Source: an uncultured Negativicutes bacterium (lineage in GTDB: Bacteria > Bacillota > Negativicutes > CTSoil-072). Taken from it: a DNA stretch of 33,661 bases. The DNA is taken from the NCBI GenBank assembly GCA_964446265.1, contig CAYUNV010000002.1:594-34254 (forward strand). Direction: 5' to 3'. The translations under genes and the position numbers were made by a program. The notes below the pieces were generated by a model. It saw nothing but the letters and a program-made list of their open reading frames with translations, was not told the DNA's origin and did no database searches. Below are positions 17,002 to 32,799 of the stretch, piece after piece (the first letter of the stretch is position 1; each line of letters begins with the position of its first letter).

Positions 17002-18281
17002 AACGACCGGCCCCCTTTCCATGCGTCTTTCAGGATTTCAAAATACGGCAGTTTACCGGAAAATACGGTTTGCTTCACTAAATCGAAAACCGACTTGGAA
17101 GGCTTGGCATCGACTGTGTACATGCTTTTCATCATTTCCAGCGCCAATCCCGGATACGTATTAAACAAATGATAAGAATGGGCAATATAGTCATGCGAAT
17201 TTTTAAAGGTCTGCAAATCTTTCAGGACATAGGGTTGCAATTTGTCTTCGTATTGTTTTAAGAAATTTTTGGAGTAGTCGTTGGCATCGATGGCCGCAAT
17301 CGCAGTTTCTGCTGCTGCTATGCCGGAGAGGATCGCATAGTCCATTCCCCGTACCGTGAACCCACGGTTGACTACGAGTCCGGCCGCATCGCCGGTCAGC
17401 AGAAAACCATCCGAGTAAAGCTGCGGCAGCGAGTTGTAGCCGCCTTCCGGAATCACATGGGCCGAATACTCGACCACTTCGCCGCCCTCAATATAGCGGG
17501 CAATCGACGGGTGCTGCTTCAGTTGTTCCACGACATCAACGATGGGCAGATTAGAATTTTTCCAGCCATAAGAGTCTACTACCAACCCAAGGGAAATGCT
17601 GTCTTTGTTCGTGTACAGGAACGCGCCGCCGCTGATGTTTTTGTTGCAATCACCCACGCAGAGCACCGCTGCTCCTTTGCCGCTTTCCAGGTTAAACCGG
17701 TCATTAATTTTTCCCTCTGACATCCTGATGACGTGTTTCGCACCAACAGCCATGTTTTTCACGTTCAACGGCTTGATTAAACCGGAGCGTTCAGCCACGA
17801 TGGCATTGACGCCTTCCGCGCTGATAACCAGATCGGCCTCCAATTCCTCTTCGCCCATTTTAACGCCGGCCACTTTTCCGTCCTTTATGATTAGGCCGTC
17901 CACCGTACTGCCGGCGATCAGCATAGCGCCTTCTTCTTCCGCCTTCGCGGCCAGCCAGGCGTCAAACTTCGCCCGCAACACCGTATGTGATGGACTGATA
18001 TGGGAAAATGTACTGTCAATTGCCATGCTATCTTCGGGAGTCATCATCATCATGATTTCCCGCGTTACTTCCCGCTCAAGAGGGGCATCTGCCCACTCTC
18101 CGGGCATCAAGGCCTCAAGAGCATAGGTATAGAGTCGGCCGCCTGTTACGTTTTTCGCTCCCGGCGTTTCTCCCCGGTCCACGAGGATCACTTGCTTTCC
18201 GGCTTTCGCCAGACGATAAGCAGCGGCAGAACCAGCCACCCCGGCACCAATTATAATTACTTCGAATTTATCTTCTGACAA
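16998..18281 (-). CDS. fixC: FixC-type FAD-dependent Etf:quinone oxidoreductase
   Basis: 427 aa with a TTG start and a GGGGGA SD 7 nt upstream. The dinucleotide fold VIIIGAGVAGSAAAYRLAKAGKQVILVDRG is present, and length and layout match FixC/YdiS. Confidence 0.9.
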   Translation of the reverse strand: MSEDKFEVIIIGAGVAGSAAAYRLAKAGKQVILVDRGETPGAKNVTGGRLYTYALEALMPGEWADAPLEREVTREIMMMMTPEDSMAIDSTFSHISPSHTVLRAKFDAWLAAKAEEEGAMLIAGSTVDGLIIKDGKVAGVKMGEEELEADLVISAEGVNAIVAERSGLIKPLNVKNMAVGAKHVIRMSEGKINDRFNLESGKGAAVLCVGDCNKNISGGAFLYTNKDSISLGLVVDSYGWKNSNLPIVDVVEQLKQHPSIARYIEGGEVVEYSAHVIPEGGYNSLPQLYSDGFLLTGDAAGLVVNRGFTVRGMDYAILSGIAAAETAIAAIDANDYSKNFLKQYEDKLQPYVLKDLQTFKNSHDYIAHSYHLFNTYPGLALEMMKSMYTVDAKPSKSVFDLVKQTVFSGKLPYFEILKDAWKGGRSL

Positions 18282-18427
18282 GGCTCTGTCCCCCTTTTAA
18301 TAAAGTACTTGTATTGATACACTACGACTCATGCGGTCGTAGGAATATCCAATGTTAATTTTTCAAACAGTCCGGGCGCCGGCGTTAACAAAAACGTAAA
18401 CGCCCGGGATAGCACACCACACTGTCT

Positions 18428-19699
18428 TTACGGTAAAGGATTGGGCGCCGATGTTGACGCTACTTTATCAAACTTCAGTTCCTCGCCTTCGTACGCTTTA
18501 ACAGCTCCGGAGGCAATGATTTTTTCCGCGTTCTCTTCTGAATAGCCATATTGTTTCAAGTATTTGCGGGTATCGTAACCGATCGGCTTGGAAACCCATA
18601 GTCCCGGATCCCCAACGCTCTTCAGTCGGATCGGCGTTGTCGGTACGACCCGTTCCCCATAATTGTCATATTGCACGCGCCGCAAAATATCATTGGCGTA
18701 GGCTTCCTCATCGGCCAGTACATCGTCGATGGTAAAGGCTTTTTGATACGGAGTTCCGGTTGCTTCGAAAATCTCCACCCATTCGTCATAGTTCTTTTTG
18801 GCAAACGCTTTTTCAAACGCTTCAATGACATAACCGTTCGTTTTATTCGCCGTCAACTGTTCCAGAGTGTTGTATTCTTCTTTGCCCTTCAGGTCTTCAA
18901 TGCCAAAGGCCTCAACCATCTGGTTAAAACAGTCGTTGTAGAGCGTTTGACAAATCAGGAACCAGACCCCATCTTTCGATTTGTAGCAATTGTTCGAAGG
19001 CATGGTTACCCATTTTCTTGATCTTGGGTAAGCAGCTCCGGACTGGCGGGATACGATCGCATGCTGCATAGCCCAGCAAGCAACATGGTACAGGTTCACA
19101 ACGACCTTATCGCCCAGGCCGGTTTTCCCTTTTCTAACCAATGCAGCCAGAATACCTGCACTCAGGAAACCACTTGCATTCCAATCTCCGAAAGCAGCCG
19201 GCACATTGACGGGGCTTTCACCGATTTGCGGGAAAGCGGTCAATATCCCGCCGCGGGCGGAATAAGCCGTGGCATCATAGCCTTTGGAATCCTTTTCCGG
19301 CCCTCTTTCACCGTAGCCCCGCATGTGCGCATAAACCAGGTGCGGAAACTTTTTACTAATCGTATTGTAATCAAGACCTAGTTTTTCCAATGCTTTATCG
19401 CGGTAGTTGGTCACCATGACATCGGCAGTTGCCAATAGTTTATACACAAATTCGATACCATCTTTGTTTTTTAGGTTAACACTCAACCAATTTTTCCCAA
19501 GGCTGGGCATATCGAAAGCGGGGTCTTCAATATCATCGCGCAGCATACCGTAACCAGGCCCTTGGGTACGCATTTCGTCACCGCCAAAAGGCTCTATCTT
19601 GATAATCTCAGCGCCCATTTCAGCAAGAATTCTCGGGCACGCCGGCGCAGCTACGAAAGAAGCCAGTTCAACAACTTTGATCCCTTCTAATCCTTTCAA
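18428..19699 (-). CDS. Family III CoA-transferase (CaiB/BaiF/Frc family)
   Basis: 423 aa with a TTG start and an AAGGGAG SD 8 nt upstream. The N-terminal GIKVVELASFVAAPACPRILAEMGAEIIKIEP is the family-III signature. Confidence 0.9.
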   Translation of the reverse strand: MKGLEGIKVVELASFVAAPACPRILAEMGAEIIKIEPFGGDEMRTQGPGYGMLRDDIEDPAFDMPSLGKNWLSVNLKNKDGIEFVYKLLATADVMVTNYRDKALEKLGLDYNTISKKFPHLVYAHMRGYGERGPEKDSKGYDATAYSARGGILTAFPQIGESPVNVPAAFGDWNASGFLSAGILAALVRKGKTGLGDKVVVNLYHVACWAMQHAIVSRQSGAAYPRSRKWVTMPSNNCYKSKDGVWFLICQTLYNDCFNQMVEAFGIEDLKGKEEYNTLEQLTANKTNGYVIEAFEKAFAKKNYDEWVEIFEATGTPYQKAFTIDDVLADEEAYANDILRRVQYDNYGERVVPTTPIRLKSVGDPGLWVSKPIGYDTRKYLKQYGYSEENAEKIIASGAVKAYEGEELKFDKVASTSAPNPLP

Positions 19700-19849
19700 A
19701 GAAAAAACTCCCTTCTTAACTTTAGACTGTCAACTATCCGAGTCGGCCGCCTCTGTCACGAGGTCGGCCGCTCGCATTACACGCTAACCGGGTAGCTGCC
19801 ACAGTAAAATCCGGACACCCCAGCCAGCGGATAGTCCTATTCGGATGCA

Positions 19850-21100
19850 TTAGTGTTGGTCAATCTGCCTGATCTTGGCAAAGAACAGGATGATCGCTCC
19901 CAAAATCGCCATGGATGATCCCAAGAACAAAGCATAGTTATAACCGAAACTGTCAACCACTATACCTGTAAGCAGTGGAGCCGATATACCGGCCATCGTG
20001 CCGATCGTGCCATACATACCAACGATAGTACCAGCATTTTTTGGGGCGAATACCATTGGGATAGAGAAAAATCCGCCTTGAGTCAGTGTTAACAAACCCA
20101 TGGAAGTGGCAATCAGTATAATCGCTACGATCGCATCCGGAGCCTGGGCACCGAAAATCAGCGCAATACCACCGATGACTAAACCAATAACCGGGAAAAG
20201 TTTCCGTCCGATATTCTGGCCATATTTCTTGGAGGCCCAGTCAGCCAGCACTCCACCCAACGGATAAGTAATCATGGCCACGCCATATGGGATCATTGTC
20301 ATGTATCCGCTTTTCACCAAGGTAAAGCCACGGCCTACAGCAAGGTAAGTGGGCAGCCAAGTTAACAGCAAGTAAAACACGTAGTTGTAACAGAAGTAAG
20401 CAATAATCGCTCCCCACACAGAAGGAACAGAGAAGATCTGCCCGGAAGTGAAGCTCGGAGCATTATTGGATCCAGCTGTTGCTCCCTGCCCAGATTGAAT
20501 ATACTGCAATTCTTCCTTGCTTACCCCCGGATGCAGTTCCGGACGGTCTTTGCCCAGCCAAACCCAGAAAATGCACCAAATAGGGCCGAGGACGGCAAAG
20601 AGATAGAATACAGTCTGCCAGTTGTAATTCTGAATGAGATGCACACCGATGAGCATTGTAAGAACAACACCGGCCGGAACCCCAACAAGCGTCATCCCCT
20701 GGGCTTTCCCAGCTTCGTTTTTCGGTACCCATCGAGATACTAAAGCCGAAGTAGAAGGCAAGGTAACACCTTGTCCTATACCAACTATTGCGCGCATAAA
20801 CATCAGGGATCCAATGGTTCCTGCGCCGATAGGGGTTAGGAAGGTAAACAAAGACCAGAGCAACGTTCCAGCGACAATTACTTTCGTGGCGCCAAATTTG
20901 TCAGCCAACCAACCGGCCGGATACATGGTCAGTGCATAACCAATAAAAAACGCGGTAGAAACCAAACCAAACTGGGTTCCTGTCCAGTGAAATTCTTTCA
21001 TCATGACGGGACCGGCAATGGATATACTGGCCCTGCCTAAATACACAAAAGTGAAGCAGACCACTAACAGGAATACTATTTGCCAACGTTTATTTGTCAT
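19850..21100 (-). CDS. MFS permease, anion:cation symporter (ACS) type, copy 2
   Basis: 416 aa with an ACGGAGGAAG SD. It has LADKFGATKV and TWLPTYL, and is paralogous to 12088..13383. Confidence 0.85.
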   Translation of the reverse strand: MTNKRWQIVFLLVVCFTFVYLGRASISIAGPVMMKEFHWTGTQFGLVSTAFFIGYALTMYPAGWLADKFGATKVIVAGTLLWSLFTFLTPIGAGTIGSLMFMRAIVGIGQGVTLPSTSALVSRWVPKNEAGKAQGMTLVGVPAGVVLTMLIGVHLIQNYNWQTVFYLFAVLGPIWCIFWVWLGKDRPELHPGVSKEELQYIQSGQGATAGSNNAPSFTSGQIFSVPSVWGAIIAYFCYNYVFYLLLTWLPTYLAVGRGFTLVKSGYMTMIPYGVAMITYPLGGVLADWASKKYGQNIGRKLFPVIGLVIGGIALIFGAQAPDAIVAIILIATSMGLLTLTQGGFFSIPMVFAPKNAGTIVGMYGTIGTMAGISAPLLTGIVVDSFGYNYALFLGSSMAILGAIILFFAKIRQIDQH

Positions 21101-21191
21101 AAATCTTCCTCCGTTATATTAAAACTCTTCTAACAACCATTCCAACCCAGAGCCGTGACCAACTTTCTACCTTCAAGCAAGCTAACTGTTT

Positions 21192-21716
21192 CTAGGATTT
21201 GAAATAGTCCTGCATCTTTTCCAGAGGAACCCCCAGCAACCCCTTTGCTTTTATGTATAAATATATAATGAAACCTCGCTTACAGCGGAATAAACACTCC
21301 TCGCAAATAGCCCTGTCACAATACACATAGGCATCCTCATCAGACAAAGGGAATACCAAAGGCGGCCGTTTCTTTTCCGTAACATATTTGATGTAGCTAC
21401 CGGTAAAGGTCTTAAGCAATATCCATTCCGGCCTATTCTCCGGCTGTACTGTTTCCCAAAATACCTGTACGGCACTCTGGTTGAAACCGCCAACGATTTT
21501 ATAATCGACATGAATTTCAGGTGAAACATCTTCAAGTTGCAAAGGCTTCAAGCGCTCCATGGGCACATCGCAACAGACCGGCGCATGAACGGGCGTATCG
21601 TAGCCTAAAACTTGATACAACCGGGCACAATGATTGCAACGATAGATAACGACATCAGGGCACTCCGGCCAAGGCTTTCTGCCTGCCCTGCTTCTTAACG
21701 GTCCGAACTCCGGCAA
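21192..21716 (-). CDS. Cys-rich protein with an N-terminal desulforedoxin-like (CxxC...CC) domain; function unknown
   Basis: 174 aa with a TTG start and GGAGG 9 nt upstream. YRCNHCARLYQVLGYDTPVHAPVCCDVPM matches the Cys-X2-Cys...Cys-Cys pattern of desulforedoxin and the desulfoferrodoxin N-domain. The C-terminal part lacks the His ligands of superoxide reductase and instead carries CDRAICEECLFRC. Confidence 0.6.
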   Translation of the reverse strand: MPEFGPLRSRAGRKPWPECPDVVIYRCNHCARLYQVLGYDTPVHAPVCCDVPMERLKPLQLEDVSPEIHVDYKIVGGFNQSAVQVFWETVQPENRPEWILLKTFTGSYIKYVTEKKRPPLVFPLSDEDAYVYCDRAICEECLFRCKRGFIIYLYIKAKGLLGVPLEKMQDYFKS

Positions 21717-21916
21717 AATTCCAGTCCTCCCAGTACATTCTTAACCTGAAGCCAGTAGCCTATCTGCAACCCCTGTTTCCGTTCCGGGAGCATCGATCTC
21801 CGGTCTTCATAAGCTCCTTCAACAAGGACCGCATTAGCTGATTTTTTTCAGAACATCCTAATATATTGGCAATATTTCGATAACTTAGTTTACTAGCAGT
21901 TTCAATTTCGTATGGA

Positions 21917-21957
21917 TTAAAAAGATAGGGCCACCAGCTGCAAGTTGATGACCCTAT
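21917..21957 (-). terminator. Intrinsic terminator after acyl-CoA dehydrogenase copy 2
   Basis: A 12-bp stem forms between 21957-21946 and 21936-21925. It is fully paired only on the minus-strand RNA, with 2 G-U pairs. CUUUUUAAUC follows. Confidence 0.6.
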
Positions 21958-21969
21958 ACTGTTTTCAAA

Positions 21970-23154
21970 TTACCAGAGATACTCTAAGACACCGCCGTGT
22001 TTGATCGTCTCGCGGGAAATGGTAATCCGCTGTACGGTAGGCGTACCTTCTTCAAGCCACATCGCACGAACGTCGCGATACAAGCGCTCGGTCGGACCAT
22101 ACGGACAATCTTCGAAGTAGCCTACGCCGCCGAAAATCTCCAGCATTTCATCACTAACCAGTTTGGTCGCATGGATACTGAATAATTTGCACATTGCGGC
22201 TTTTTCTTCGATGTATTCGCCGTGCGGATCTTTTTCGTAGTCCTTTGCGAAGTCATACACCATGGTGCGAAGAGCATGGGTATATGTAGACATATCGGCA
22301 ATCTTCATTCTGATCGCTTGACGCTCAATGATCGGTTTTCCGAAAGTTACACGGTCATGGGCGCGTTTGAGGGAGATTTCCAGCATCCGTTGGCACATAC
22401 CGAGGTTGCTGGCTGCAATATGAACACGGGAAACGGACAGGGAGTGAATAGAAATATGCAGTCCGTCACCCTCTTTGCCGAGCAAATATTTCTTCGAAAC
22501 TCTCATGTTTGTGAACTTTAATCCGGTATGGCCTGATCCACGGCAGCCCATCATATGAGGCATCGGAGTCAGTTCATAACCAGGGGTGCTGGCAGGAACC
22601 ATGAACGTGGAGAGGCGGCGATCTTTCGGAGCGTCCGGATCAGTAACACAGGTAATATAAGAATAGTTGCTGCAGTCAGTATGCGAGATCAGGTATTTTT
22701 CCCCGTTGATGATATAATCATCGCCATCTTTTACTGCAAGAGTATGCAAGTCAGCGCCGGTTCCGCCGCTTTCCTCGGTAACAGCCCAGTTCGTGAAAAC
22801 GGTTCTGTCTTGGAAACCAGGCATTAATTCTTTCTTGAGCTCTTCACTGCCGAAGTCGTACAGCGGGCGCCAGTTCAAGTCCATGGCATAGTGGAGATGC
22901 ATCCGCATGCCGCCAGGCCCACGGCTGAATTCTTCCTGCAGTCTCAGAATTTGAGTTTCGCTAAGGTCCCAACCGCCGTATTCAACCGGCAGGGGAGCGC
23001 GATACAGATTGTTCTTGATGCACAACTGATAAAATTCCTCCGGAAACACATTCGTGTCTTCGATAGCTTTTTGCATCTCATCAAGAGTGCCCTCTGTAAA
23101 TTCCCTGATCTGTTTAAGATACGCCTCAAATTCTTGGTCGGTGATTTTTGCCAT
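21970..23154 (-). CDS. Acyl-CoA dehydrogenase family protein, copy 2 (divergent)
   Basis: 394 aa with an AAGGGGGA SD. It has an ACAD fold (WAVTEESGGTGADL, DDYIINGEKYLIS, C-terminal LEEGTPTVQR). It appears to have its own promoter and terminator. Confidence 0.85.
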   Translation of the reverse strand: MAKITDQEFEAYLKQIREFTEGTLDEMQKAIEDTNVFPEEFYQLCIKNNLYRAPLPVEYGGWDLSETQILRLQEEFSRGPGGMRMHLHYAMDLNWRPLYDFGSEELKKELMPGFQDRTVFTNWAVTEESGGTGADLHTLAVKDGDDYIINGEKYLISHTDCSNYSYITCVTDPDAPKDRRLSTFMVPASTPGYELTPMPHMMGCRGSGHTGLKFTNMRVSKKYLLGKEGDGLHISIHSLSVSRVHIAASNLGMCQRMLEISLKRAHDRVTFGKPIIERQAIRMKIADMSTYTHALRTMVYDFAKDYEKDPHGEYIEEKAAMCKLFSIHATKLVSDEMLEIFGGVGYFEDCPYGPTERLYRDVRAMWLEEGTPTVQRITISRETIKHGGVLEYLW

Positions 23155-23196
23155 TTTGTTTCCCCCTTGTTATTTTTATAACTATTGGATGATTTG

Positions 23197-23255
23197 ATTA
23201 TATGTGCTTTTCTTATCAGCGTCTAATTGATAAATATTGCATGGTTTTATCAATT
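23197..23255 (-). promoter_or_regulatory. Candidate LysR-dependent promoter of ACAD copy 2 (-10 TATAAT, poor -35, overlapping inverted repeat)
   Basis: The minus strand has TATAAT at 23202-23197 and a weak -35 (TTAGAC/TAGACG). The perfect inverted repeat AATTGATAA (23225-23233), 13 nt, TTATCAATT (23247-23255) abuts the -35. Confidence 0.45.
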
Positions 23256-23400
23256 CATAGATAAATTTCATCGATTATTTGTAATTGGGCAAATTTTTAG
23301 TCATTTTATCTATGAAACATCTTTACAATAATTAAGAACGCAACAACCATTAGAGAGCACAACAACTTAAACATCAACAAAATGGCCATTTAGCAAGGAC

Positions 23401-23442
23401 AACAAAAACCTCCCCCATAGAATTGCTTCTACAGAAGAGGTC
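23401..23442 (-). terminator. Intrinsic terminator after the LysR gene
   Basis: A 16-bp stem forms between 23442-23427 and 23422-23407 with a 4-nt loop. It is completely paired only as minus-strand RNA (six G-U pairs, which are C-A or A-C mismatches on the plus strand). UUUGUUGU follows. Confidence 0.6.
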
Positions 23443-23541
23443 TTTTTTCACTATTAATTGAATTTATGTCTACAATGAAGTTATAGTCTATTTATATAGT
23501 TTATTTCTATAGATTCCGTTTTCTTTACGAAAAACGAAAAT

Positions 23542-24465
23542 TTACCGGCAATAGACAGCCTTTATGATATCTTTGCTGTAATTGAGGACATAGTTTTTCA
23601 CTTGCCGGACGGCCATAGATTCATGCCTGTTTTTCATATGGCCAAGATAAATCATTCTTGTATAGACAGGATTTCTTATTGGCAATACCTTCAAAGGAAA
23701 ATTATGAAAGATAGGACTGTCGGGAGCAATTGCAATTCCTACATTGGCAACAACCAGTCCAGACATGGAAATTTCATTTTCCACTTCACAGGCAACCTTG
23801 GGAATGAGATTGACCTTTAAAAACAAGCGGTTGATCTCTTGCTTCAAACCCGGTTTATCGGAATAATGGATCAGTTTATAGGGCTCCAGTTCTTTCAAGT
23901 CAACACTTTCTTGCGAAGCAAGCGGAGAATCATAGGGCAAAATCGCCACTAGCTTCTGTTCACCGAGTGGTATGAATTCCACATCCGTATCTTTCGGTAT
24001 GAGAGAAACGAAAATTAAATCCAGGTTCCCGGCCTTTAGATCCCTCACTAAACCGTGGGTACATTCATTGAGTGTAGTGCCTTCCCGCAGAAGGAACTCT
24101 ACATTTAAATTTTGGTTATCTTTTTTAAACTGCCCGACTAGATTGGGAATAAAATGGGCGCTGAGAGTATAAATAAAGCCGATATTGATTTTCCCTTCAG
24201 TATCAGCCGAGAACTCCCTTACCTTATTAATACCAGTTTCTATTTCAGATAATGCTTTTTCCACATAAGTCAGAAACACCCGGCCTTGCTCTGTCAGCAC
24301 TATATTGCGCCCTTGTTTTTCAAATAAAGGAACGCCAATCTCACTTTCCAAAGCAGAAATTGAATGACTCAGGCTTGGCTGCGTTATACAAAGATTCGTG
24401 GCGGCTTTTGTGCAATGTTGCAATTTGGCGAGAGTTCTAAAATAGTTTAACTGGTAAAGATTCAT
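23542..24465 (-). CDS. LysR-family transcriptional regulator
   Basis: 307 aa. The N-terminal wHTH is MNLYQLNYFRTLAKLQHCTKAATNLCITQPSLSHSISALESEIGVPLFEKQGRN, followed by a periplasmic-binding-protein-like effector domain. AAAGGAGAGG SD is present. Confidence 0.9.
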   Translation of the reverse strand: MNLYQLNYFRTLAKLQHCTKAATNLCITQPSLSHSISALESEIGVPLFEKQGRNIVLTEQGRVFLTYVEKALSEIETGINKVREFSADTEGKINIGFIYTLSAHFIPNLVGQFKKDNQNLNVEFLLREGTTLNECTHGLVRDLKAGNLDLIFVSLIPKDTDVEFIPLGEQKLVAILPYDSPLASQESVDLKELEPYKLIHYSDKPGLKQEINRLFLKVNLIPKVACEVENEISMSGLVVANVGIAIAPDSPIFHNFPLKVLPIRNPVYTRMIYLGHMKNRHESMAVRQVKNYVLNYSKDIIKAVYCR

Positions 24466-24549
24466 GCGCCTCTCCTTTAATCAATTAATATTCATTGATC
24501 TACTTTACCAAGGTGACAGAAACGACTGACTATTTATACTCTTTGTGAA

Positions 24550-24579
24550 ATTATATCCCATCTCGATTTGCTCCGTCAA
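24550..24579 (-). promoter_or_regulatory. Candidate sigma-A promoter of the LysR gene
   Basis: The minus strand reads TTGACG (24579-24574), an 18-nt spacer, then TATAAT (24555-24550). The palindrome ATCAAT-N8-ATTGAT (24480-24499) lies in the predicted 5' UTR. Confidence 0.6.
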
Positions 24580-24728
24580 GATTGTTAATTAAAAGTCTGT
24601 GTTAATTGAAAATCATATTTCTATCTGAAATCGACAGGATCAGAACATTTCAAGACTCCCATTAATGCATCATTCATCATAGTTTTGAACCTGCTGCAAA
24701 ATGTTTTGAAAAAACTGCAAACTAAATG

Positions 24729-25682
24729 CTAAAACATATGGCTAAACATCAACTGAATAGACGAGTGATTCATATTGGTTAAATATTGCTGATTATCTTT
24801 ATACATTAAATCCATCCTGTTCTCAGCACCGAAACTATGCGCAAAACCGTAATAATACCCTTTTTCGTTATGTTCAAAAGCAGTTTTCTCGTTCATATCA
24901 GCATTGGGTTCGGTTTTGTGAGTAATAACATAAAACTGATTAGACGGATCAAGTCGGTAACAGGCACCCAAATTATGAGCAGTCATATCGGTCTTGGATG
25001 GCGCTTGAGAATGTTCGGCATACAGGAAGAATTTGTTGACTTCATAAGAACTATAAATAGCGTAATAATTGACATCCGGCTTCAAATCGGCAAAATCATA
25101 CCTAGCTAAGGTACCGCCCGCAACCAGCCGCGGCGAGTACTGATGCAAATAGGTAATGCTATAGATGCGATTATCCGCTACCTCTTTGTTATCTTCCTGG
25201 GCCACAATCACCTTGAGATAATTGCCTCTTTTATTCGTCTCCATGGAAATGCCATCTACAAAAGAATACCGTCCTATCGATTTGGTATTATCATAAAGCA
25301 GCCCTGTAACCCCAACCATAGCGCCTTGGCGTCCAAGTTTATACGTATACCCTGCATTGGAATACATCAGACAAAATTGATCCAGTTGGGCAACGAATTT
25401 CCGCTGGCGTTGATAATCTGCAAAATCACGGCCAAAATCTTTTTTGGATAAAAACTGTATTCCGAAACGAACATACACAGAAACGTGCTCATTGATGGGA
25501 ACATTGTACCCCACAGCTATCGTATTGATAAAACCTGAACCGGATTTTTTCGGCTCAATGTCATTCTTATCATCGCGATATTTCAATGTTTCAACACCGT
25601 CTAGGATTGGCGTTCCGGCTTGTGCAACGCCTGCTAGCAAGAAGAGAATTGGCAGCAGTATGATTAGAAAAAGGTATCTCAC
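24729..25682 (-). CDS. Putative outer-membrane beta-barrel (porin-like) protein
   Basis: ORF 24729..25766. The start was moved to GTG 25682 (GAGGGGG 7 nt upstream), giving the signal peptide (M)RYLFLIILLPILFLLAGVAQA/GT. Alternating aromatic and polar strands run throughout, rich in Y, G and N, and the C-terminus ...IQLMFSHMF ends in Phe as in OMP barrels. Confidence 0.6.
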   Translation of the reverse strand: MRYLFLIILLPILFLLAGVAQAGTPILDGVETLKYRDDKNDIEPKKSGSGFINTIAVGYNVPINEHVSVYVRFGIQFLSKKDFGRDFADYQRQRKFVAQLDQFCLMYSNAGYTYKLGRQGAMVGVTGLLYDNTKSIGRYSFVDGISMETNKRGNYLKVIVAQEDNKEVADNRIYSITYLHQYSPRLVAGGTLARYDFADLKPDVNYYAIYSSYEVNKFFLYAEHSQAPSKTDMTAHNLGACYRLDPSNQFYVITHKTEPNADMNEKTAFEHNEKGYYYGFAHSFGAENRMDLMYKDNQQYLTNMNHSSIQLMFSHMF

Positions 25683-25771
25683 TGATATACCCCCTCTCAA
25701 CATCATCGGCTGGACAGACAACTCTGTTAAAGATCTCGTCCTTGCATGCATCAATACTGCCGGCAAGACGC

Positions 25772-25799
25772 AAAAACCGACCTAACAAGGTCGGTTTTT
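25772..25799. terminator. Symmetric (bidirectional-type) terminator hairpin between htpX and the barrel gene
   Basis: AAAAACCGACC (25772-25782), loop TAACAA, GGTCGGTTTTT (25789-25799). The stem is flanked by an A-run and a T-run. A second 11-bp hairpin lies at 25851-25886. Confidence 0.6.
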
Positions 25800-25910
25800 G
25801 CCAATAATCAATCGCGAAAAACGTCCAACTACAGTTTTATATTACCAACCCCGTTCATGCTGTTAATTCTATTATAGCATGAACGGTTTTTACTCCCACA
25901 GAGTTTCTTA

Positions 25911-26783
25911 CTAGCTCCTAATTTTCTTTGCCAACGCTTCCAGCTTAGCAGCTCTTTGCTCCGTTGCCGGATGCGTGCTGAACAAGCTCATCATCCAACC
26001 GCCCGCTTTGCTTAGCGGGTTAACAATGAACATATGGGACGTTGCCGGTGTAGCTTGTTCCATTACTCCATGACGGGCATAATATTCGATTTTCCGTAAC
26101 GCACTGGCAAGCGCCAAAGGATTATTGCACATCAGTCCGCCGGCTTCATCCGCCTGGTATTCCCTTGAACGTGAGATTCCTAATTGAATGAGAGTCGCAG
26201 CCAAGGGGGCAAGCACGATCAAAAATACAAATTCAATCATTCCTGCAATGCCGCCGTTATCTTCATCATCACTCCGTCCACCACCAAATATGGCGGCCCA
26301 TTGCGCCATATTTGCAATCATGGTAATGACACCGGCAACCGTAGCAACGATCGTACTGATGAGCGTATCACGGTTTTTGATATGTGCAAGCTCATGTGCA
26401 ACAACACCCTCAAGTTCCTCATAATTCAGTGCTCTCATGATCCCGGTGGTAACGGCAACTGCGCCATGCTCCGGGTCCCGTCCGGTTGCAAACGCGTTCG
26501 GCGTATTGGTTTCCATGATAAGTACTTTGGGCATTGGCATATTCGCTTTTTTTGCCAGACCGGCAACCATCTGGACTAACTCCGGCGCATCATTCTCCGA
26601 AACTTGTTTTGCGCCATACATACTGAGGACAATCTTGTCACTGTACCAATAACTCACAAAATTCATCAGTATAGACACAACAAACATGACCATCATCCCT
26701 TTGGCGCCGCCAAAGAAACTGCCTGCCGCTAATAATAACCCGGTTAATGCCGCTAATAAAACCGTTGTTTTTAGGCTATTCAT
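25911..26783 (-). CDS. htpX: Membrane zinc metalloprotease HtpX
   Basis: 290 aa with N-terminal TM helices, the [10 protein letters not shown] zinc motif, two further TM helices and the conserved REYQADEAG segment. GGAGG SD is present. Confidence 0.9.
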
Positions 26784-26898
26784 TTTTATTCAACCTCCAT
26801 TTTATTTTTATTGTAATTTTGAAGTATCACATTACCTCATCCTATTTAAACGGAAATGTCATCAGCCTCCTTGATAGGTACATAGTATAGATATATAC

Positions 26899-27027
26899 AA
26901 AAAACGAGACCACAGGTATGAACATTGCTCAAACCTTAGGTCTCGCTAATTGGTTTTACCAACGGTAGTGCCAGACGTTTTTAACGCCGGTTGTTGACAC
27001 TAGCCTAGTAAGCTACTCCCCTAGGGG
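26899..27027 (-). promoter_or_regulatory. yybP-ykoY (Mn2+) riboswitch-like leader with terminator expression platform, upstream of htpX
   Basis: Minus-strand RNA has CCCCUAGGGGAGUAGC (27027-27012) ... UUAGCGAGACCUAAGG (26949-26934). These match the two hallmark conserved blocks GGGGAGUAG and UUAGC(A/G)AGACC. The flanks CCUAGG and CCUAAGG are complementary, forming P1. Hand-drawn helices are 27002-26996 with 26972-26966, a hairpin at 26988-26974 and a hairpin at 26962-26950. The terminator is CGAGACC (26945-26939) with GGUCUCG (26911-26905) plus U6 (26904-26899), and it overlaps the 3' conserved block. Confidence 0.65.
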
Positions 27028-27044
27028 ATTATTCGATTAAAGTA

Positions 27045-27073
27045 ATTATACCGAGATCTCGATTTAGTGTCAA
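27045..27073 (-). promoter_or_regulatory. Consensus sigma-A promoter driving the riboswitch leader
   Basis: The minus strand reads TTGACA (27073-27068), exactly 17 nt, then TATAAT (27050-27045). The predicted transcription start site (TSS) at about 27038 is 10 nt before the aptamer P1. Confidence 0.7.
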
Positions 27074-27144
27074 GATAATTCGCTTTTCAGATAATTCGAC
27101 GAGAATGTAAATGATACAGTAAAACAATTCTGAATCGACTACAT

Positions 27145-28836
27145 TCATTTACGAGTATATGGAAAATATTTTACATCCTCATCTTTTATATGTCCAATTA
27201 TAACATCATCGGTAATAAACGAAAGAAAGGCAGACAATTTCAGTTCATTTTTATGATATGCTTCCTTACGTTTTAATGCTTCTGCGAGTAACGTTTTGTG
27301 AATAATGGAGTGTCTTTTTTGATCCGAATATCCCATATTAAAGAGAATATGGTTCTCATAATTAAAATGTTGCTCTACACGTTGCAACAACATATCCACC
27401 TGACGATCCACTTTTTCAAACTCCACATTAGAAAGCGAATAGAAAATCAGGCGGTTCGTTAGTTCAAGCAATTCACGATGCTGATCATCAATAATTTTAT
27501 TGCCACTCTCCCATTCCTTGCTCCAATGAAGTTCTATCGATGCCACAGGCAACCGCACTTGTTCATCCGACCCAACAACACGGTTACGACCGCCTTTTTT
27601 AGCGCGATACAGAGCTTCGTCTGAACGCTGGAGCCAGCTATCAAAGGTTTCATCTTTAATCCTTTCGGCGACACCGAAACTGCCGGTATAACGGCCAACG
27701 ATAGGATGAGTATTTTTGTCCAAGGCTTCCCGGATTTTCTCTGCTGCCCGAAGAGCTCCGTGAATATCGGTTTCCGGCATCAATACTACAAATTCTTCGC
27801 CACCCACCCTGGCGAGGATATCTGATTTGCGTATCATGTGACTGACTATCACAGCAGTTTGTTTCAAGACTTCATCGCCGACCAGATGGCCCCACGTATC
27901 ATTGACACGTTTAAAATTATCCAAATCCAGAATAATCATCGACAAAGGCTCATTATAGCGATCTGATCGTTCTGCTTCTTCCTCTATTTTTTGATAAAAG
28001 TAATGTCTGTTAAACAAACCGGTTAACTCGTCTGTAACGGCAAGCAGCTCCAATGCCTCATTTTTTTTCTTTAAAGCTTCAGTCATCATAATCAATTCAT
28101 CATTCTTTTTATTCAGCTGGATTTCCATATTTCTCTTTTCCGTTACATCTCTTGCAGCGGCATAGATATATTTCCCATGCTGCACAGCGTTCCATTCAAT
28201 ATAACGGTCAGTGCCGTCTTTGCATTGAAACCTGGTAACTAAACGGCGAATCGGCTTCTGCGCCGCTAAATCTTTCATCGCATCATTGATGGCAGTTACC
28301 TCGTCATCATGAACTAAATCCAAAATATTCATTCCTACCAATTCTTCAATTGCATAACCCAAAATATGTTCAAACGATTGGTTAATTTTCATAAAATTCC
28401 CGTCAGTATCGCACACAGACAGCAAGTCTAAATTGGTAGCGAAAAAGCTTTCAATTTCCTGTTCCTGCAAATATTCCGTCGTGATATCGTAAAATATGCA
28501 GGCAAAAATATCGTTGGATAGTGGAAATACCGTAATACGCATCCATTTCTGTGCTAAGGGATGGAATAATTCAACACTTGCTAACTTATGATTCATGATC
28601 ACATCTTGCACAACCATTTTCCATCTCTCTAATTCTGTCCAATCCGTAACAACTACTGCTTGAAAGCTTTTGCCCACCACAGCAGAAGCTTTCACCTTCA
28701 TCATATCTTCGTATGCTTTATTTATTCTTAAATATTCATAGTCGTAAGGAATACCTTGCTCATTCAGCATAACCCGATGATATGAATATGCTATTGGGGA
28801 TTTTTCAAAGAACTCCGTACAATATTGTTCTTTCAT
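27145..28836 (-). CDS. PAS-PAS-GGDEF diguanylate cyclase with a C-terminal hemerythrin-like domain
   Basis: 563 aa. It has two PAS-like regions and a coiled linker. The GGDEF domain carries an intact RKSD I-site and VGGEEF. The tail has the bacteriohemerythrin ligand pattern (IIDDQHRELL, EQHFNYENHIL, KRHSIIHKTL, IIGHIKDEDVKY). Confidence 0.85.
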   Translation of the reverse strand: MKEQYCTEFFEKSPIAYSYHRVMLNEQGIPYDYEYLRINKAYEDMMKVKASAVVGKSFQAVVVTDWTELERWKMVVQDVIMNHKLASVELFHPLAQKWMRITVFPLSNDIFACIFYDITTEYLQEQEIESFFATNLDLLSVCDTDGNFMKINQSFEHILGYAIEELVGMNILDLVHDDEVTAINDAMKDLAAQKPIRRLVTRFQCKDGTDRYIEWNAVQHGKYIYAAARDVTEKRNMEIQLNKKNDELIMMTEALKKKNEALELLAVTDELTGLFNRHYFYQKIEEEAERSDRYNEPLSMIILDLDNFKRVNDTWGHLVGDEVLKQTAVIVSHMIRKSDILARVGGEEFVVLMPETDIHGALRAAEKIREALDKNTHPIVGRYTGSFGVAERIKDETFDSWLQRSDEALYRAKKGGRNRVVGSDEQVRLPVASIELHWSKEWESGNKIIDDQHRELLELTNRLIFYSLSNVEFEKVDRQVDMLLQRVEQHFNYENHILFNMGYSDQKRHSIIHKTLLAEALKRKEAYHKNELKLSAFLSFITDDVIIGHIKDEDVKYFPYTRK

Positions 28837-28989
28837 ATCCTTTCCCCCTCACTATGCTTGAGGTATACCAGACTGTAAAAAGGTTCTTACTTCTATTTTA
28901 TCAGAATATTGCAAATAAGTATCCTGTTAATAACACAAAGTCATTTTTCTCACCTAATACAAATATTCCAGAAAAACGAACCATAGAGC

Positions 28990-29014
28990 AAAACCGACCT
29001 GAGAAAGGTCGGTT
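28990..29014 (-). terminator. Putative terminator after the pyruvate-kinase-domain gene
   Basis: AACCGACCU (28992-29000) pairs with AGGUCGGUU (29006-29014). On the minus strand it is followed by UUGCUCU, which is a short U-tract. Confidence 0.45.
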
Positions 29015-29072
29015 GCCGGTTAATTGCTCCATTTACTAATTTTTCTCGCCGCTTCTTCCACCCTGTAGAAAT

Positions 29073-29630
29073 TTATGCCTGCAACGGTTTGCAGATGATT
29101 TCTTTAATGTAAGTATCAAACAGGTTTTGGGCATGAGCCGGCCGAATGATGACCGCAGTGTCCGCCCCCTTGCCACTTCCGGCAACAGCAACGATGTCTT
29201 TGCCATAGGGTATCAATCCGCCATCGAGCGCCATGATCGAAATTTCCACGCAAACCTTGGCGCCTTGCCCTAACATCCGCAGGCTGTGCGCGACAATTTC
29301 GACCGGATAAGCGCCACTAAAGCGACGGCTGATCGCACGCTCCGCGCCCGATAATACATGGGCAGTTGTGTAAACCTCAATCCCCACATTCTTAAGCCGG
29401 CCGCGCGCTTCCTTAGCCATTTCATTGACGCCCGGTTCAGAAGTTCCATACGCATGAGAAACACAAACAACCTGTAGTCCCTCTGCCTTTTCCGCTAATT
29501 TCAGTGCAGTTTCGCCGCTCGTCGAGGCAACAACAAGGTATGAAATCCCTTTTTCTTTGGCTGTCTTTATTGCAACTGCAATCGTAGCATCCGTATTTTG
29601 CGGGCCGGATTCTTCCCAATACACAATCAA
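29073..29630 (-). CDS. Pyruvate kinase alpha/beta (C-terminal) domain-containing protein
   Basis: 185 aa with a TTG start. YLVVASTSGETALKLAE... and the overall length match stand-alone PK C-terminal-domain proteins of anaerobes, as I recall them. Confidence 0.65.
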   Translation of the reverse strand: MIVYWEESGPQNTDATIAVAIKTAKEKGISYLVVASTSGETALKLAEKAEGLQVVCVSHAYGTSEPGVNEMAKEARGRLKNVGIEVYTTAHVLSGAERAISRRFSGAYPVEIVAHSLRMLGQGAKVCVEISIMALDGGLIPYGKDIVAVAGSGKGADTAVIIRPAHAQNLFDTYIKEIICKPLQA

Positions 29631-29658
29631 TCACACTCCCATTCTATGTTTAGAAAGA

Positions 29659-29892
29659 TTATTGTTTAAAAAACCGGATGATCAACAACAATACAATCGC
29701 CCCAATCGTCGCCATAACAATCTTGCCGATTGTGCCATGCGCGGTCAAACCCAAAAAACCAAACAAATATCCGCCAAGAAATGAACCGATGACACCAACG
29801 ACCAGGTCGCCAAAAAGGCCAAACCCCGAACCTTTCAGCACATGTCCAGCCAACCAGCCGGCGATAATACCAATAACAAGAAACCAAATCAT
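29659..29892 (-). CDS. GlsB/YeaQ/YmgE-family small membrane stress protein
   Basis: 77 aa starting MIWFLVIGIIAGWLAGHVLKGSGFGLFGDLVVGVIGSFLGGYLF, with three glycine-zipper TM helices. GAGGAGGGA SD is present. Confidence 0.8.
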   Translation of the reverse strand: MIWFLVIGIIAGWLAGHVLKGSGFGLFGDLVVGVIGSFLGGYLFGFLGLTAHGTIGKIVMATIGAIVLLLIIRFFKQ

Positions 29893-29979
29893 TCGCGTTC
29901 CCTCCTCTTGGTCTCAACTTGTCCTTTCAAATAGAAAGATGGCAGAAACAGAATGTTTTGTGTGAATTAAAAACAAATC

Positions 29980-30022
29980 ATGAAAAGAAAAAGGCAGGAA
30001 GTCTCTTTTGCGAAAAAACTTC
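29980..30022 (-). terminator. Putative intrinsic terminator after dapA
   Basis: The minus-strand hairpin GAAGUUUUUU-CGCAA-AAGAGACUUC spans 30022-29998 and has two G-U pairs. The U-rich sequence CUGCCUUUUUCUUUUC follows. Confidence 0.5.
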
Positions 30023-30034
30023 ATGCCCTTTCAG

Positions 30035-30913
30035 TTAAATCAATCCGTATGCCTGCATCTCTTTGCGAAGAAGTGCGAGGTTACCCTCAGAAAGTTCCGT
30101 AAGCGGCAGCCTGCATGGACCCGCGTTGAAACCCATAAGGTTCACAGCAGTCTTGACCGGGATCGGGTTGACTTCGGTAAACAAAGCCTTTATGAGATCA
30201 AGGGTCTGCAATTGCATTTTAATCGCGCCGTTTATGTCCCCTTGGAAAAAGTTCATCACCATATCATGCGTATCTCGCGGGATAATATTGGCCAAAACAG
30301 AAATGACACCTTTGCCGCCGAGCGACAGTACCGGTAAAACCACGGGATCATCACCGGAGTACACGGAAAAATCCGGGCCGCACAAATTGACTATATCGCC
30401 AACCTGCCCGAGATTACACTCTTTAATCGCAATAATGTTATCGATTTCCGATAACAGCTTGACCGTCTCCGGATTTATATTCATATTGGTCCTGCTCGGC
30501 ACGTTATATAAAATCATCGGGACTTTGACGCTATCGGCGATCAGCTTGAAATGCTGATACAAGCCCTTTTGCGTGGCTTTATTATAGTAGGGGGTAACGG
30601 ATAATATCCCGTCAACACCGACCGCTTCCGCTTCTTTCGACAGTTCGACTGCATGCCGGGTATCATTGCTGCCGGTGCCGCCAATAACCGGTACCCGCTT
30701 ATTTACGGCATCAACTGCAAACTTAATGACTTCAATATGTTCTTTATCCGGCATCGTAGAAGCTTCGCCGGTCGTACCGCAAACAACAATTGCATCGATC
30801 CCGTTTTCAATTTGGAACTCAATAAATTCCGCTAACGCCGGATAATTAACCCCTTCTTCTGTAAAGGGAGTTACAATCGCTGTTGCTGAACCGATAAAGA
30901 GTGGTTCTCTCAT
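30035..30913 (-). CDS. dapA: 4-hydroxy-tetrahydrodipicolinate synthase
   Basis: 292 aa with GSATAIVTPF, VVCGTTGEASTM, YNVPSRT and the Schiff-base Lys context IIAIKEC, at the length typical of DapA. Confidence 0.9.
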   Translation of the reverse strand: MREPLFIGSATAIVTPFTEEGVNYPALAEFIEFQIENGIDAIVVCGTTGEASTMPDKEHIEVIKFAVDAVNKRVPVIGGTGSNDTRHAVELSKEAEAVGVDGILSVTPYYNKATQKGLYQHFKLIADSVKVPMILYNVPSRTNMNINPETVKLLSEIDNIIAIKECNLGQVGDIVNLCGPDFSVYSGDDPVVLPVLSLGGKGVISVLANIIPRDTHDMVMNFFQGDINGAIKMQLQTLDLIKALFTEVNPIPVKTAVNLMGFNAGPCRLPLTELSEGNLALLRKEMQAYGLI

Positions 30914-31204
30914 AAATTACACCGCCTTTTGAAATTTGTCCTATGGACATAGCTATGATATTCTTTATTTTCCTCTTTCAATGAATACTTCCTGCTTTTC
31001 TAAGAAATATTCTTCCACCTCCGGTTTCCCCGTGCTAAAACATACCAGCACAACAGCATTCCCAGCTTCATGACAGGGCGTTATGCCCATCTTTGTTTAT
31101 CCCGCAATAGATCAAAACCTAAAACACACAAGTATTCTTCGCCGTTTCCGGCCTTCTTTCCTTCGCCAATAACCAAGTTGCAGCAATATAACGATAAAAA
31201 TATG

Positions 31205-31245
31205 AACCCTATTACCGAAAAATATACATTTCAGGCAATAGGGTT
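31205..31245 (-). terminator. Hairpin terminator after the flavin reductase gene
   Basis: A 12-bp stem forms between AACCCUAUUGCC (31245-31234) and GGUAAUAGGGUU (31216-31205), with one G-U pair on the minus strand. CAUAUUUUUAUCG follows. The plus strand also has a T-rich tail. Confidence 0.5.
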
Positions 31246-31292
31246 GTTTGTTTTCTACAAGCAGTTGCTGATACAACAGATAACCATGCAGT

Positions 31293-31862
31293 TCAAACGC
31301 CATCGGGAATTTTATCCTCCATCAGATGACGCAGATTAATCGTTTCACCGTCGACCACAAAGGTGCCGTCACCATTGGCATGGAATGTACGCCGTTCCTT
31401 CCGGTCATTGTCAATCCATGCCCGGACGCCCCGCAGCAAAAAGATACCCGGATCCTCCAGATAATTGGTTACTTGACATTCCAGGCAGGCGAGGCACTCC
31501 GCAACCAATGGCGCACCCACTACACTTGCCGGCAATGGCGTTAGTTCAAATGCCGTAAATTTATCAACACTGGTGCCGGAACAATCACCAATACGGACCA
31601 CTTTTTCTGCAATATCAATGGTCGGAACTGCCAACACACATTCTTTTTTCTGCACCAACGCATTGAACGAGTAGTTCCACGGACCAGTGGTAAGGGCAAT
31701 ACACGGAGTAAAATCTGTCACCATGTGCCAGGAAATCGTCATAAGGTTATTTTTCCGCCCGTCGTTTGTTGTGACCAGAATAACCGGTCCTGGCTCAAAC
31801 AGCATAAATGCTTTGGGGAGCGGTAATTCCATGAAAGCCATACTGATCAACCGTCCTTTCAC
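31293..31862 (-). CDS. Flavin reductase-like (FMN-binding split-barrel) protein
   Basis: 189 aa with PGPVILVTTNDGRKNNLMTISWHM, typical of the flavin reductase domain. The track start is GTG 31862. ATG 31841 is an alternative, so the start is uncertain. Confidence 0.75.
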   Translation of the reverse strand: MKGRLISMAFMELPLPKAFMLFEPGPVILVTTNDGRKNNLMTISWHMVTDFTPCIALTTGPWNYSFNALVQKKECVLAVPTIDIAEKVVRIGDCSGTSVDKFTAFELTPLPASVVGAPLVAECLACLECQVTNYLEDPGIFLLRGVRAWIDNDRKERRTFHANGDGTFVVDGETINLRHLMEDKIPDGV

Positions 31863-31977
31863 TTCATTATTTTCCTGCCATTTATTCTAAACATTTACTT
31901 AAAGTCAAATTCTGTGTACCATTCGCAAAGTATTGTGTTAAGATTAAACCAATGTTATTACAACCATGAGGTGCAAA

Positions 31978-32799
31978 ATGATTTCGGATTGGATCAATAA
32001 AATACACAATATCGATTGCATAACCGGCATGAAAAAACTTCCAGACCATTCCATCGATTTAATCATTGCTGATCCTCCCTACAACCTCTCTAAAGGAGCA
32101 GCTTGGAAATGGGATAACAGCGTGAAACTTGATGGCATGGGTGGTAATTGGAATAAAGTGATGGAAAATTGGGATGACGTGGACTTTGAGCAATATTGGG
32201 AATTCACGATATCATGGCTAACCCAGGCGAAACGGATTTTAAAGACTAGTGGTTCCATGTGGATCTTCGGAACCTATCACAATATTGGGATCATTAATGT
32301 TATTTGCCAAAAGTTAGGAATCGAGATAATCAACGAAGTCATTTGGTATAAACGCAATGCCTTTCCTAATCTATCCGGCCGCCGCTTCACCGCCAGCCAT
32401 GAAACGATTTTATGGTGTCATGCCGGCGGTAAAAAAAGAGAATATTTCTTTAATTATGAGTATACCAAAAATACTTCCTTTCCTGAAGATAACTTAAAAA
32501 TTATCGAAAAACAGATGCGTACGGTCTGGGATATTCCGAATAACAAAGAAAAAAAGGAATCAGCCTTTGGCAAGCATCCAACACAAAAACCGCTCCGCGT
32601 CCTGCGGAGAATGATTCTGTCGGCAAGCAAACAAGGAGATATATGCTTAACCCCTTTTAGCGGCGTTGGCAGTGAATGCGCGGCGGCGAAAGAAGCAGGC
32701 AGAAATTATATAGGCTTTGAAATAGACAAGTCTTATTACGATATCTCTGTCCAGCGTCTGGACCATGTCGTTTTCGGTTCAAGAATTGAGCAAATATGA
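31978..32799 (+). CDS. Beta-class DNA methyltransferase (N6-adenine or N4-cytosine), DpnA/M.MboI-C-like
   Basis: ORF 31966..32799, with the start moved to ATG 31978 (GAGGTG SD). Motif IV IIADPPYNL precedes motif I FSGVGSE, which is the beta permutation. NEVIWYKRNAFPNLSGRRFTASHETILWC and GKHPTQKP resemble DpnA as I recall it. Confidence 0.85.
   Translation: MISDWINKIHNIDCITGMKKLPDHSIDLIIADPPYNLSKGAAWKWDNSVKLDGMGGNWNKVMENWDDVDFEQYWEFTISWLTQAKRILKTSGSMWIFGTYHNIGIINVICQKLGIEIINEVIWYKRNAFPNLSGRRFTASHETILWCHAGGKKREYFFNYEYTKNTSFPEDNLKIIEKQMRTVWDIPNNKEKKESAFGKHPTQKPLRVLRRMILSASKQGDICLTPFSGVGSECAAAKEAGRNYIGFEIDKSYYDISVQRLDHVVFGSRIEQI

Follow-up and report, generated by a model that had tools for sequence, protein, structure and literature searches.

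The gene for the membrane protease HtpX in an uncultured Negativicutes bacterium is preceded by a leader that we read as a transcriptional ON riboswitch of the yybP-ykoY (Mn2+) class. The leader lies in a 33,661-nt stretch of contig CAYUNV010000002.1, referred to below as the window, and we put the probability that it controls htpX in this manner at roughly 80%. The RNA class and its mechanism are already known. What is new is the target gene, htpX, which is under-appreciated: in the open-access literature, we found no report of it as the target of a Mn2+ riboswitch. The prediction is that a membrane quality-control protease is under direct Mn2+ sensing, in an arrangement that is conserved in a Sporomusaceae subclade including the cultured Methylomusa anaerophila and Propionispora. 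Targeting of htpX has also arisen independently elsewhere, and it is tied genomically to terC.

Anatomy of the htpX leader

The initial annotation, made from the DNA alone, had placed a promoter, a yybP-ykoY-type aptamer and an overlapping terminator in front of htpX, and had interpreted the unit as an ON switch. This core reading is supported by the signature loops, by the score of a covariance model (R1, described below), by the overlap of helix P1.1 with the terminator, and by conservation in relatives. On the minus strand, promoter, aptamer, overlapping terminator and htpX follow each other in this order, with all three parts of the leader at the coordinates originally given:

27045 to 27073, minus strand: sigma-70-type promoter, -35 TTGACA (27073-27068), 17-nt spacer, -10 TATAAT (27050-27045)
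26934 to 27026, minus strand: Mn2+-type (yybP-ykoY class) aptamer in three-way-junction form, about 95 nt, 54.9 bits with R1
27026-27020 with 26940-26934, minus strand: P1.1, 7 positions, one C.A mismatch
within 27021-27012, minus strand: 5' strand of L1, GGAGUA, part of GGGGAGUAGC
26944-26941, minus strand: 3' strand of L1, GAGA
27013-27009 with 26949-26945, minus strand: P1.2
27004-26995 with 26973-26964, minus strand: P3.1
26989 to 26994, minus strand: metal-binding loop L3, ACAACC, invariant C-A kept, 6 nt where 7 are usual
26988-26984 with 26978-26974, minus strand: P3.2
26963-26959 with 26953-26949, minus strand: P4
26899 to 26947, minus strand: intrinsic terminator (expression platform), 5' arm AGCGAGACC (26947-26939) with GGUCUCGUU (26911-26903)
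26936-26933 with 26917-26914 and 26931-26927 with 26923-26919, minus strand: upper stems of the terminator
26904-26899, minus strand: U-tract, U6
26784 to 26898, minus strand: spacer between terminator and htpX, with the htpX Shine-Dalgarno sequence GGAGG (26798-26794) and a Shine-Dalgarno-like box with a mini open reading frame (26872-26842)
25911 to 26783, minus strand: htpX, inner-membrane M48 zinc metalloprotease, 290 amino acids, HELAH motif

The promoter matches the consensus at 12 of 12 positions in the promoter scan, exactly where it had been annotated. No other site in the window has one mismatch or fewer; the chance expectation is 0.18 such sites, and at least one turns up in 16 of 100 shuffles of the window. 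The promoter alone is thus not significant; its position is nonetheless conserved in relatives. Transcription probably starts near 27038. Read along the minus strand, CCCUAGGGGAGUAGC follows about 20 nt 3' of TATAAT, then a long hairpin with GUGUCAACAACC, a short hairpin GUUGGUAAAACCAAU, UUAGCGAGACCUAAGG, and finally GGUCUCG with the U6 that ends at 26899. From the U-tract to the ATG of htpX it is 115 nt, precisely the distance in the initial annotation, and the reading frame that begins there (26783-25911) does encode a Peptidase_M48 protein.

The aptamer (27026-26934) reads CCCUAGGGGAGUAGC, then GUGUCA and ACAACC, and further downstream UUAGC, GAGA and CCUAAGG. Both signature loops for which it had been recognised are present. 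L1 is complete, with GGGGAGUAGC (27021-27012) opposite AGCGAGACC (26947-26939), and the L1 columns are invariant in 110 aptamers. In L3, ACAACC follows GUCA and is closed by UGGC, as in the G-U-C/G-G-C stem of the class, and the window has the C, C and A that are invariant there. A26992 presumably corresponds to the Mn-coordinating A41 of the L. lactis aptamer, as judged from the L. lactis numbering and from the statements on A41 and A48 in PMC6754395. L3 is 7 nt long in 97 of 100 aligned aptamers, and 6 nt long in the window, in locus L008 and in L134. The shorter loop is also found in the htpX-clade relatives L203, L204, L208 and L210, and is thus characteristic of the htpX clade of the window, although in Methylomusa anaerophila (L211) the loop is unshortened (ACAUACACC). 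Helix P2 is absent: there is only CUAG between P1.2 and P3.1, which makes the junction three-way instead of canonical four-way. As aligned, the window forms 23 of the 29 pairs of the family, and 26 of 29 when the register of P4, which is shifted by one column in the family alignment for the subclass of the window, is read by hand. P1.1 is weak. The minimum-free-energy fold of the isolated window aptamer omits it, while that of the L008 aptamer includes it. By our own arithmetic, about 1e-6 chance occurrences of the composite motif GGGGAGTAGC-N12-18-TCANNA-N30-55-AGCNAGACC are to be expected in the window.

The terminator is a composite hairpin of 9, 4 and 5 bp (26947-26903) with a folding energy of -26.1 kcal/mol (z = -7.06). 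A simple terminator scan missed it because its apical part exceeds the loop limit. The terminator form is also the minimum-free-energy fold of the whole leader (-53.8 kcal/mol, z = -5.3). As the initial annotation had proposed, the conserved 3' block of the aptamer is the 5' arm of the terminator: nucleotides 26947-26939 comprise the 3' strands of P1.2 and L1 and the beginning of the 3' strand of P1.1. The aptamer and terminator folds are therefore mutually exclusive. Such ligand-ON logic, with aptamer pitted against terminator, is standard for the yybP-ykoY class (PMC6754395).

In order to assess class membership independently of Rfam, metagenome contigs were scanned for the composite motif, the spacing of which leaves no room for a P2 hairpin. 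The scan yielded at least 120 loci (L083-L202). R1 was built from 110 non-redundant aptamers with a hand-written P1.1/P1.2/P3.1/P3.2/P4 structure, and every htpX-linked aptamer was excluded. R1 was run on 610 kb, made up of the window, 80 loci with htpX, two loci of E. coli, and the four metagenomic loci in which htpX follows the aptamer (L090, L124, L158 and L185). There were 11 matches with E-values of at most 1, none of which looks spurious. The window (26930-27030, minus strand) scores 54.9 bits (E-value 1.4e-12) and L008 56 bits, compared to 44.8 bits for the validated alx aptamer and 33.2 bits for the validated mntP aptamer of E. coli, so that R1 ranks the window above both. Among the listed loci of the motif scan, the first downstream gene encodes a TerC family protein in 44 loci, a P-type ATPase in 18, a GDT1/UPF0016 protein in 13, a LysR-type regulator in 9 and HtpX in 4. 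Since TerC, P-type ATPases and GDT1 are classical targets of Mn2+ riboswitches, and one of them follows most of the 110 aptamers, the training set is genuine Mn2+ riboswitch material. When 100 sequences were realigned, 90.3% of the cells were paired (31-47% in slid controls), 23 of 29 pairs had double changes, and the covariation score was 0.604 (about 0.11 when slid). From the raw MAFFT alignment, RNAalifold recovered only P1.1, P1.2, P3.2 and part of P4; P3.1 and P4 required the hand-written structure and realignment to the model.

P2-less aptamers of the Mn2+ type are thus abundant. They occur in AT-rich and in GC-rich organisms, in front of genes for TerC, P-type ATPases and GDT1. The alx-like riboswitches are said to be exclusive to Enterobacteriales in a 2025 paper, but the absence of P2 alone is clearly not restricted to this order. 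In nine GC-rich contigs (L148, L097, L145, L186, L157, L130, L108, L189 and L172), a reading frame for a LysR-type regulator (HTH_1 and LysR_substrate domains) starts within about 30 nt of the aptamer, which would be another non-classical, non-transporter target. In L091 (7627-7729, minus strand), a riboswitch of the L124/L158 type lies 53 nt before a reading frame for a 357-amino-acid fusion of a beta-carbonic anhydrase (Pro_CA) and a UPF0114 membrane domain.

Recurrence of the leader and the link to TerC

The downstream gene is an htpX gene. Its product matches Pfam Peptidase_M48 (PF01435) with 122.9 bits, and its top five NCBIfam matches are all HtpX equivalogs. The best two scores (369.6 and 363.7 bits) are just below the equivalog cut-offs (422 and 369). 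Relatives that are 75-78% identical are annotated as zinc metalloprotease HtpX by their sources. Downstream of htpX, the window contains a reading frame for 345 amino acids (24729-25766, minus strand) that matches no Pfam or NCBIfam family. Its N-terminal region resembles a signal peptide and its last residues are SHMF, as could be the case for an outer-membrane beta-barrel in a diderm Negativicute. No Mn2+ transporter was found among the 14 reading frames of the window that were scanned against Pfam (16998-32799), and a tRNA scan of the window was negative.

The initial annotation had suggested looking for the same leader in front of htpX orthologues. We analysed 80 htpX loci from GTDB species-representative genomes, by a strict motif scan followed by an R1 search. 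The strict motif was present only in L008, L019 and L026, and among the 80 loci it stands directly upstream of htpX only in Propionispora sp. 2/2-37 (L008). The one locus that R1 contributed in addition is L006, in which terC carries the riboswitch, 1.8 to 2.6 kb away from htpX. The leader is thus not a general feature of htpX genes. Closer relatives of the window HtpX, with 81-87% identity, were found by a protein search. In every contig that was fetched for them, the same promoter-aptamer-terminator unit is present 70-240 nt upstream of htpX, and the carriers (L203, L204, L206/L207, L208/L209 and L210) score 52.7-58.8 bits with R1. Methylomusa anaerophila, with an HtpX that is 78% identical, has an R1 match of 51.7 bits upstream of htpX. 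The leader is therefore found in all six closer relatives examined, in Propionispora and in M. anaerophila, but is missing from most Sporomusa.

The -35/17/-10 promoter is at the same position in L008, L203, L204, L206, L208 and L211. Equivalent terminators are found in L203, L204, L206, L208 and L211, and in L008 (-26.4 kcal/mol, z = -8.2). In the htpX clade (six leaders), 91.8% of the cells are paired and seven pairs show compensatory changes. Altogether, eight further loci have the complete unit in front of htpX, conserved and with compensatory changes. The spacers between terminator and htpX differ in length, from about 36 nt in L008 through 74 nt in L210 and 84 nt in L208 to about 250 nt in L211. 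The L211 spacer (2270-2460) is very AT-rich, with repeated AATATAAATGATAATATA units. A 78-amino-acid reading frame between riboswitch and htpX in this locus was regarded as spurious; it has no family match and starts inside the terminator. In the closest relatives (L203, 3409-4758, minus strand, and L205, 953-2302, minus strand), the gene next to htpX on its downstream side is convergent and of the CNNM/CorC type for divalent-cation efflux; the downstream neighbour in the window is different.

In the spacer of the window (26872-26842, minus strand), a perfect AAGGAGG box similar to a Shine-Dalgarno sequence lies 3 nt before the AUG of a tiny reading frame for MTFPFK. Equivalent boxes are present in L203 and L204 (about 2415-2445), where the tiny reading frame encodes MIFS. 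The sequence AAGGAGGCUGAUGA(C/U)AUU is common to all three, while the surrounding spacer diverges. The box and mini-frame could represent a leader peptide or a Shine-Dalgarno-like stabiliser of the mRNA. Stabilisers of this kind are called STAB-SD in Bacillus. On the other side of the leader, upstream of its promoter, a PAS-GGDEF-hemerythrin gene has its stop at 27145. There is no apparent hairpin terminator between this stop and the promoter (27074-27145), and hence transcripts reading through from the PAS-GGDEF-hemerythrin gene would also meet the riboswitch terminator.

The initial annotation had called htpX an atypical target. It is atypical, but it is not unique, because it recurs in related and unrelated bacteria. 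The window aptamer is nearest to GDT1-linked aptamers and the aptamer of L090 is nearest to TerC-linked ones. The htpX leaders of L124, L158 and L185 represent a third type, and their HtpX proteins are closest to Bacteroidota/Ignavibacteria-type proteins. In L090, L124, L158 and L185, L3 has the normal 7 nt, and in all htpX-linked leaders examined, a terminator overlaps P1.1. The three aptamer types, the Bacteroidota/Ignavibacteria-like HtpX proteins and the overlapping terminators argue that htpX is not a chance target.

The genomic link to TerC takes several forms. Operons with the order riboswitch-terC-htpX are present in a Selenomonadales metagenome-assembled genome (L019) and in Megamonas hypermegale (L026). 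L203 and L204 each have a further riboswitch, on the opposite strand and in front of a divergently transcribed terC. The two L204 riboswitches, at 2055-2161 (minus strand) and 2260-2362 (plus strand), one for terC and one for htpX, are back-to-back in a single 540-nt intergenic region, and those of L203, at 265-371 (minus strand) and 2259-2360 (plus strand), lead one into terC and the other into htpX. More broadly, a TerC gene is located within 3 kb of htpX in 7 of the 80 loci, in several phyla. An Alx-like TerC is encoded on the same strand, 0.2-1.5 kb from htpX, in L033, L035, L050 and L071 (Cytophagia, Chlorobi and Ignavibacteria). As R1 detected no riboswitch at these four loci, the linkage reaches beyond the riboswitch-bearing lineages.

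Proposed switch and competing explanations

According to the model that we favour, transcription would begin at the strong promoter (27073-27045). At low Mn2+, the weak P1.1 would yield its 3' strand to the far more stable terminator (26947-26899), and most transcripts would stop at the U-tract before htpX. With rising cytoplasmic Mn2+, L1 and L3 would dock around the metal and stabilise P1.2, L1 and P1.1. The metal-bound aptamer would retain the GAGACCUAAGG strand, the terminator would not form, and RNA polymerase would read through into htpX. HtpX may work alongside TerC-type Mn2+ exporters and metalation factors at the Sec translocon, and Mn2+ excess may create a need for extra membrane-protein quality control. 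The best reading of the physiological role is then that HtpX is co-induced with the Mn2+ export and metalation machinery at high Mn2+. MeeF and MeeY, the TerC proteins of B. subtilis, co-purify with HtpX, FtsH and SecY/SecDF. A Mn2+ riboswitch controls meeY (ykoY), and FtsH becomes essential when MeeF and MeeY are both lost (PMC10550928). The model fits with these data on TerC at the Sec translocon with HtpX and FtsH, and predicts that Mn2+ excess creates a need for HtpX activity.

We lean, by a small margin over even odds, towards the broader view that HtpX is a genuine and repeatedly recruited member of Mn2+ riboswitch regulons, with at least three aptamer lineages (in Negativicutes and in the group with Bacteroidota/Ignavibacteria-like HtpX), and co-regulated with and often located beside TerC. 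If so, it would be part of a conserved module that couples Mn2+ export and metalation by TerC at the Sec translocon to quality control by HtpX, and the shortened L3 may give the clade of the window a metal set-point of its own.

Several observations weigh against the assignment. With RF00080, the window (26948-27027) scores 17 bits (E-value 0.012), and the Rfam 15 gathering threshold is 45 bits; positive controls fall short of it as well. The aptamer has no P2, and its L3 is 1 nt short inside the metal-binding loop, so that affinity or selectivity could differ. HtpX is not a metal transporter, and the downstream gene is therefore outside the Mn2+ homeostasis set. By motif and R1 scan, the leader is absent in front of most htpX genes of Sporomusa. 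A further weak promoter could be present within the 115-nt spacer. Finally, the pattern that yielded the R1 training set was derived from the window; much of the R1 score is thus due to shared motifs, and this share is circular. Independent of the motif are the helices, the kinds of genes downstream of the training aptamers, and the recovery of alx and mntP by R1.

The Rfam result deserves a closer look, because a cmsearch with RF00080 had been named beforehand as the check. Formally, a score of 17 instead of 45 bits refutes the call, and none of the window matches any Rfam 15 family at the gathering thresholds. However, the same model also misses the validated aptamers: that of E. coli mntP (L082, 7468-7558) scores 44.9 bits, just under the threshold, and that of E. 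coli alx (L081, 13320-13590) has no match even at an E-value of 10. The mntP aptamer is one with a crystal structure. The L008 leader scores 10 bits, and the TerC-linked Negativicutes leaders of L019 and L026 have no match at E-values up to 0.1. The 177 positions of RF00080 include P2, P3 and P4, the last with a loop of great length, and end before the conserved 3' strand of P1 and L1. As it lacks this strand and misses validated controls, a sub-threshold score does not discriminate. Likewise, since P2 is missing from the validated alx aptamer and from at least 120 metagenomic aptamers with classical target genes, it is typical of the class, but not required. The current Rfam model for Mn2+ riboswitches thus misses P2-less aptamers, which are apparently widespread, and annotation pipelines that depend on it will under-call this riboswitch.

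Among the alternatives, the one with most in its favour accepts fold and switch, and supposes that the shortened L3 has retuned the pocket, either to another divalent cation (e.g. Cd2+, Co2+ or Zn2+) or to a Mn2+ level much different from that of TerC- and GDT1-linked aptamers. A 6-nt L3 occurs in just 3 of 100 aligned aptamers, yet in most leaders of the htpX clade. The loop bears the Mn-coordinating adenine and phosphates (PMC6754395), alx and mntP differ in L3 in ways that are believed to adjust their affinity (PMC12153347), and HtpX is itself a zinc enzyme. We nevertheless consider such retuning unlikely. The invariant C-A of L3 and the entire L1 are intact, the htpX leaders of L090, L124, L158 and L185 have a 7-nt L3 and that of L211 is not shortened either, and the pairing of the htpX leader with a riboswitch on terC in L203 and L204 suggests one shared signal.

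Much less probable still are two explanations that would deny the leader a role in the control of htpX. A GDT1- or TerC-type riboswitch could have lost its transporter gene, and could now stand before htpX by accident, without a selected role. The resemblance of the window aptamer to GDT1-linked ones fits this idea, as do the terC-htpX operons of relatives, in which loss of the first gene would give exactly the layout of the window. An evolutionary leftover is hard to reconcile with an intact promoter, aptamer and terminator and with compensatory changes in nine htpX loci, where HtpX is only 75-87% identical, or with at least three aptamer lineages directly upstream of htpX. Moreover, a strong terminator without function would silence the gene. 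It is equally improbable that the locus mainly produces a free-standing RNA of about 140 nt, ending at the terminator, and that a separate promoter within the 115-nt spacer serves htpX. The initial annotation had raised this possibility, together with a weaker second promoter, and neither has found support. The terminator is indeed very stable, the spacers of the window and of L211 are long, and the TTTAAA-16-GATACT site (26850-26845 and 26828-26823) has an upstream TG. However, the site matches the consensus at only 8 of 12 positions, was not reported by the promoter scan, and is not conserved: the spacers of L008, L210 and L208 are too short for a promoter. The overlap of terminator and P1.1 is also exactly that of cis-acting Mn2+ riboswitches. 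A riboswitch that controls htpX in cis thus remains the preferred interpretation.

Comparison with known Mn2+ riboswitches

With the transcriptional ON riboswitches of Firmicutes (B. subtilis yybP and ykoY/meeY, L. lactis yoaB; RF00080), the window leader shares L1 (GGGGAGUAG) including the A-minor adenosine, the invariant C-A of L3, the AGC(A/G)AGACC 3' strand, and the helices P1.1, P1.2, P3.1, P3.2 and P4. The 5' arm of the terminator is in both cases the 3' strand of P1.1, so that ligand binding would lead to read-through. In contrast to the Firmicutes riboswitches, the window aptamer lacks P2 and has a three-way instead of a four-way junction, its L3 has 6 instead of 7 nt, its target is a protease and not a Mn2+ exporter, and it stays below the Rfam 15 gathering threshold.

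The E. coli alx riboswitch, upstream of a TerC-family gene, also lacks P2 and has been termed a three-way junction (3WJ, PMC12153347). Like the window aptamer, it is detected by R1 and missed by Rfam 15. However, in alx L3 reads UCAUUAC and L1 GGGGAGUAAC, the terminator lies inside a long P4, and the platform is translational and linked to pH. In the window, the L3 stem (GUGUCA/UGGCAC) resembles that of mntP, P4 is short, and a classical terminator serves as the platform. With only the absence of P2 in common, and with different L3, P4 and platform, the window aptamer does not belong to the alx-like subclass.

Among the matches listed, the aptamers linked to GDT1/UPF0016 genes (L183, L099, L107, L113, L161 and L170) are nearest to the window, with 62-67% identity. 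They have the same GUCAACA L3 stem, the same P4 (GUUGG...CCAAUUAGCGAGACC), and the same terminator design of GUCUCG(C) and U-tract, but differ by a 7-nt L3 (ACAUACU or ACAUGCU) and by the GDT1-family transporter downstream. In the Selenomonadales riboswitch-terC-htpX operons (L019 and L026), htpX is likewise under a P2-less Mn2+-type riboswitch with a terminator. There, unlike in the window, terC comes first and htpX second, and the riboswitch has a TerC-type aptamer with UCAUUAC or UCAGUAC as L3.

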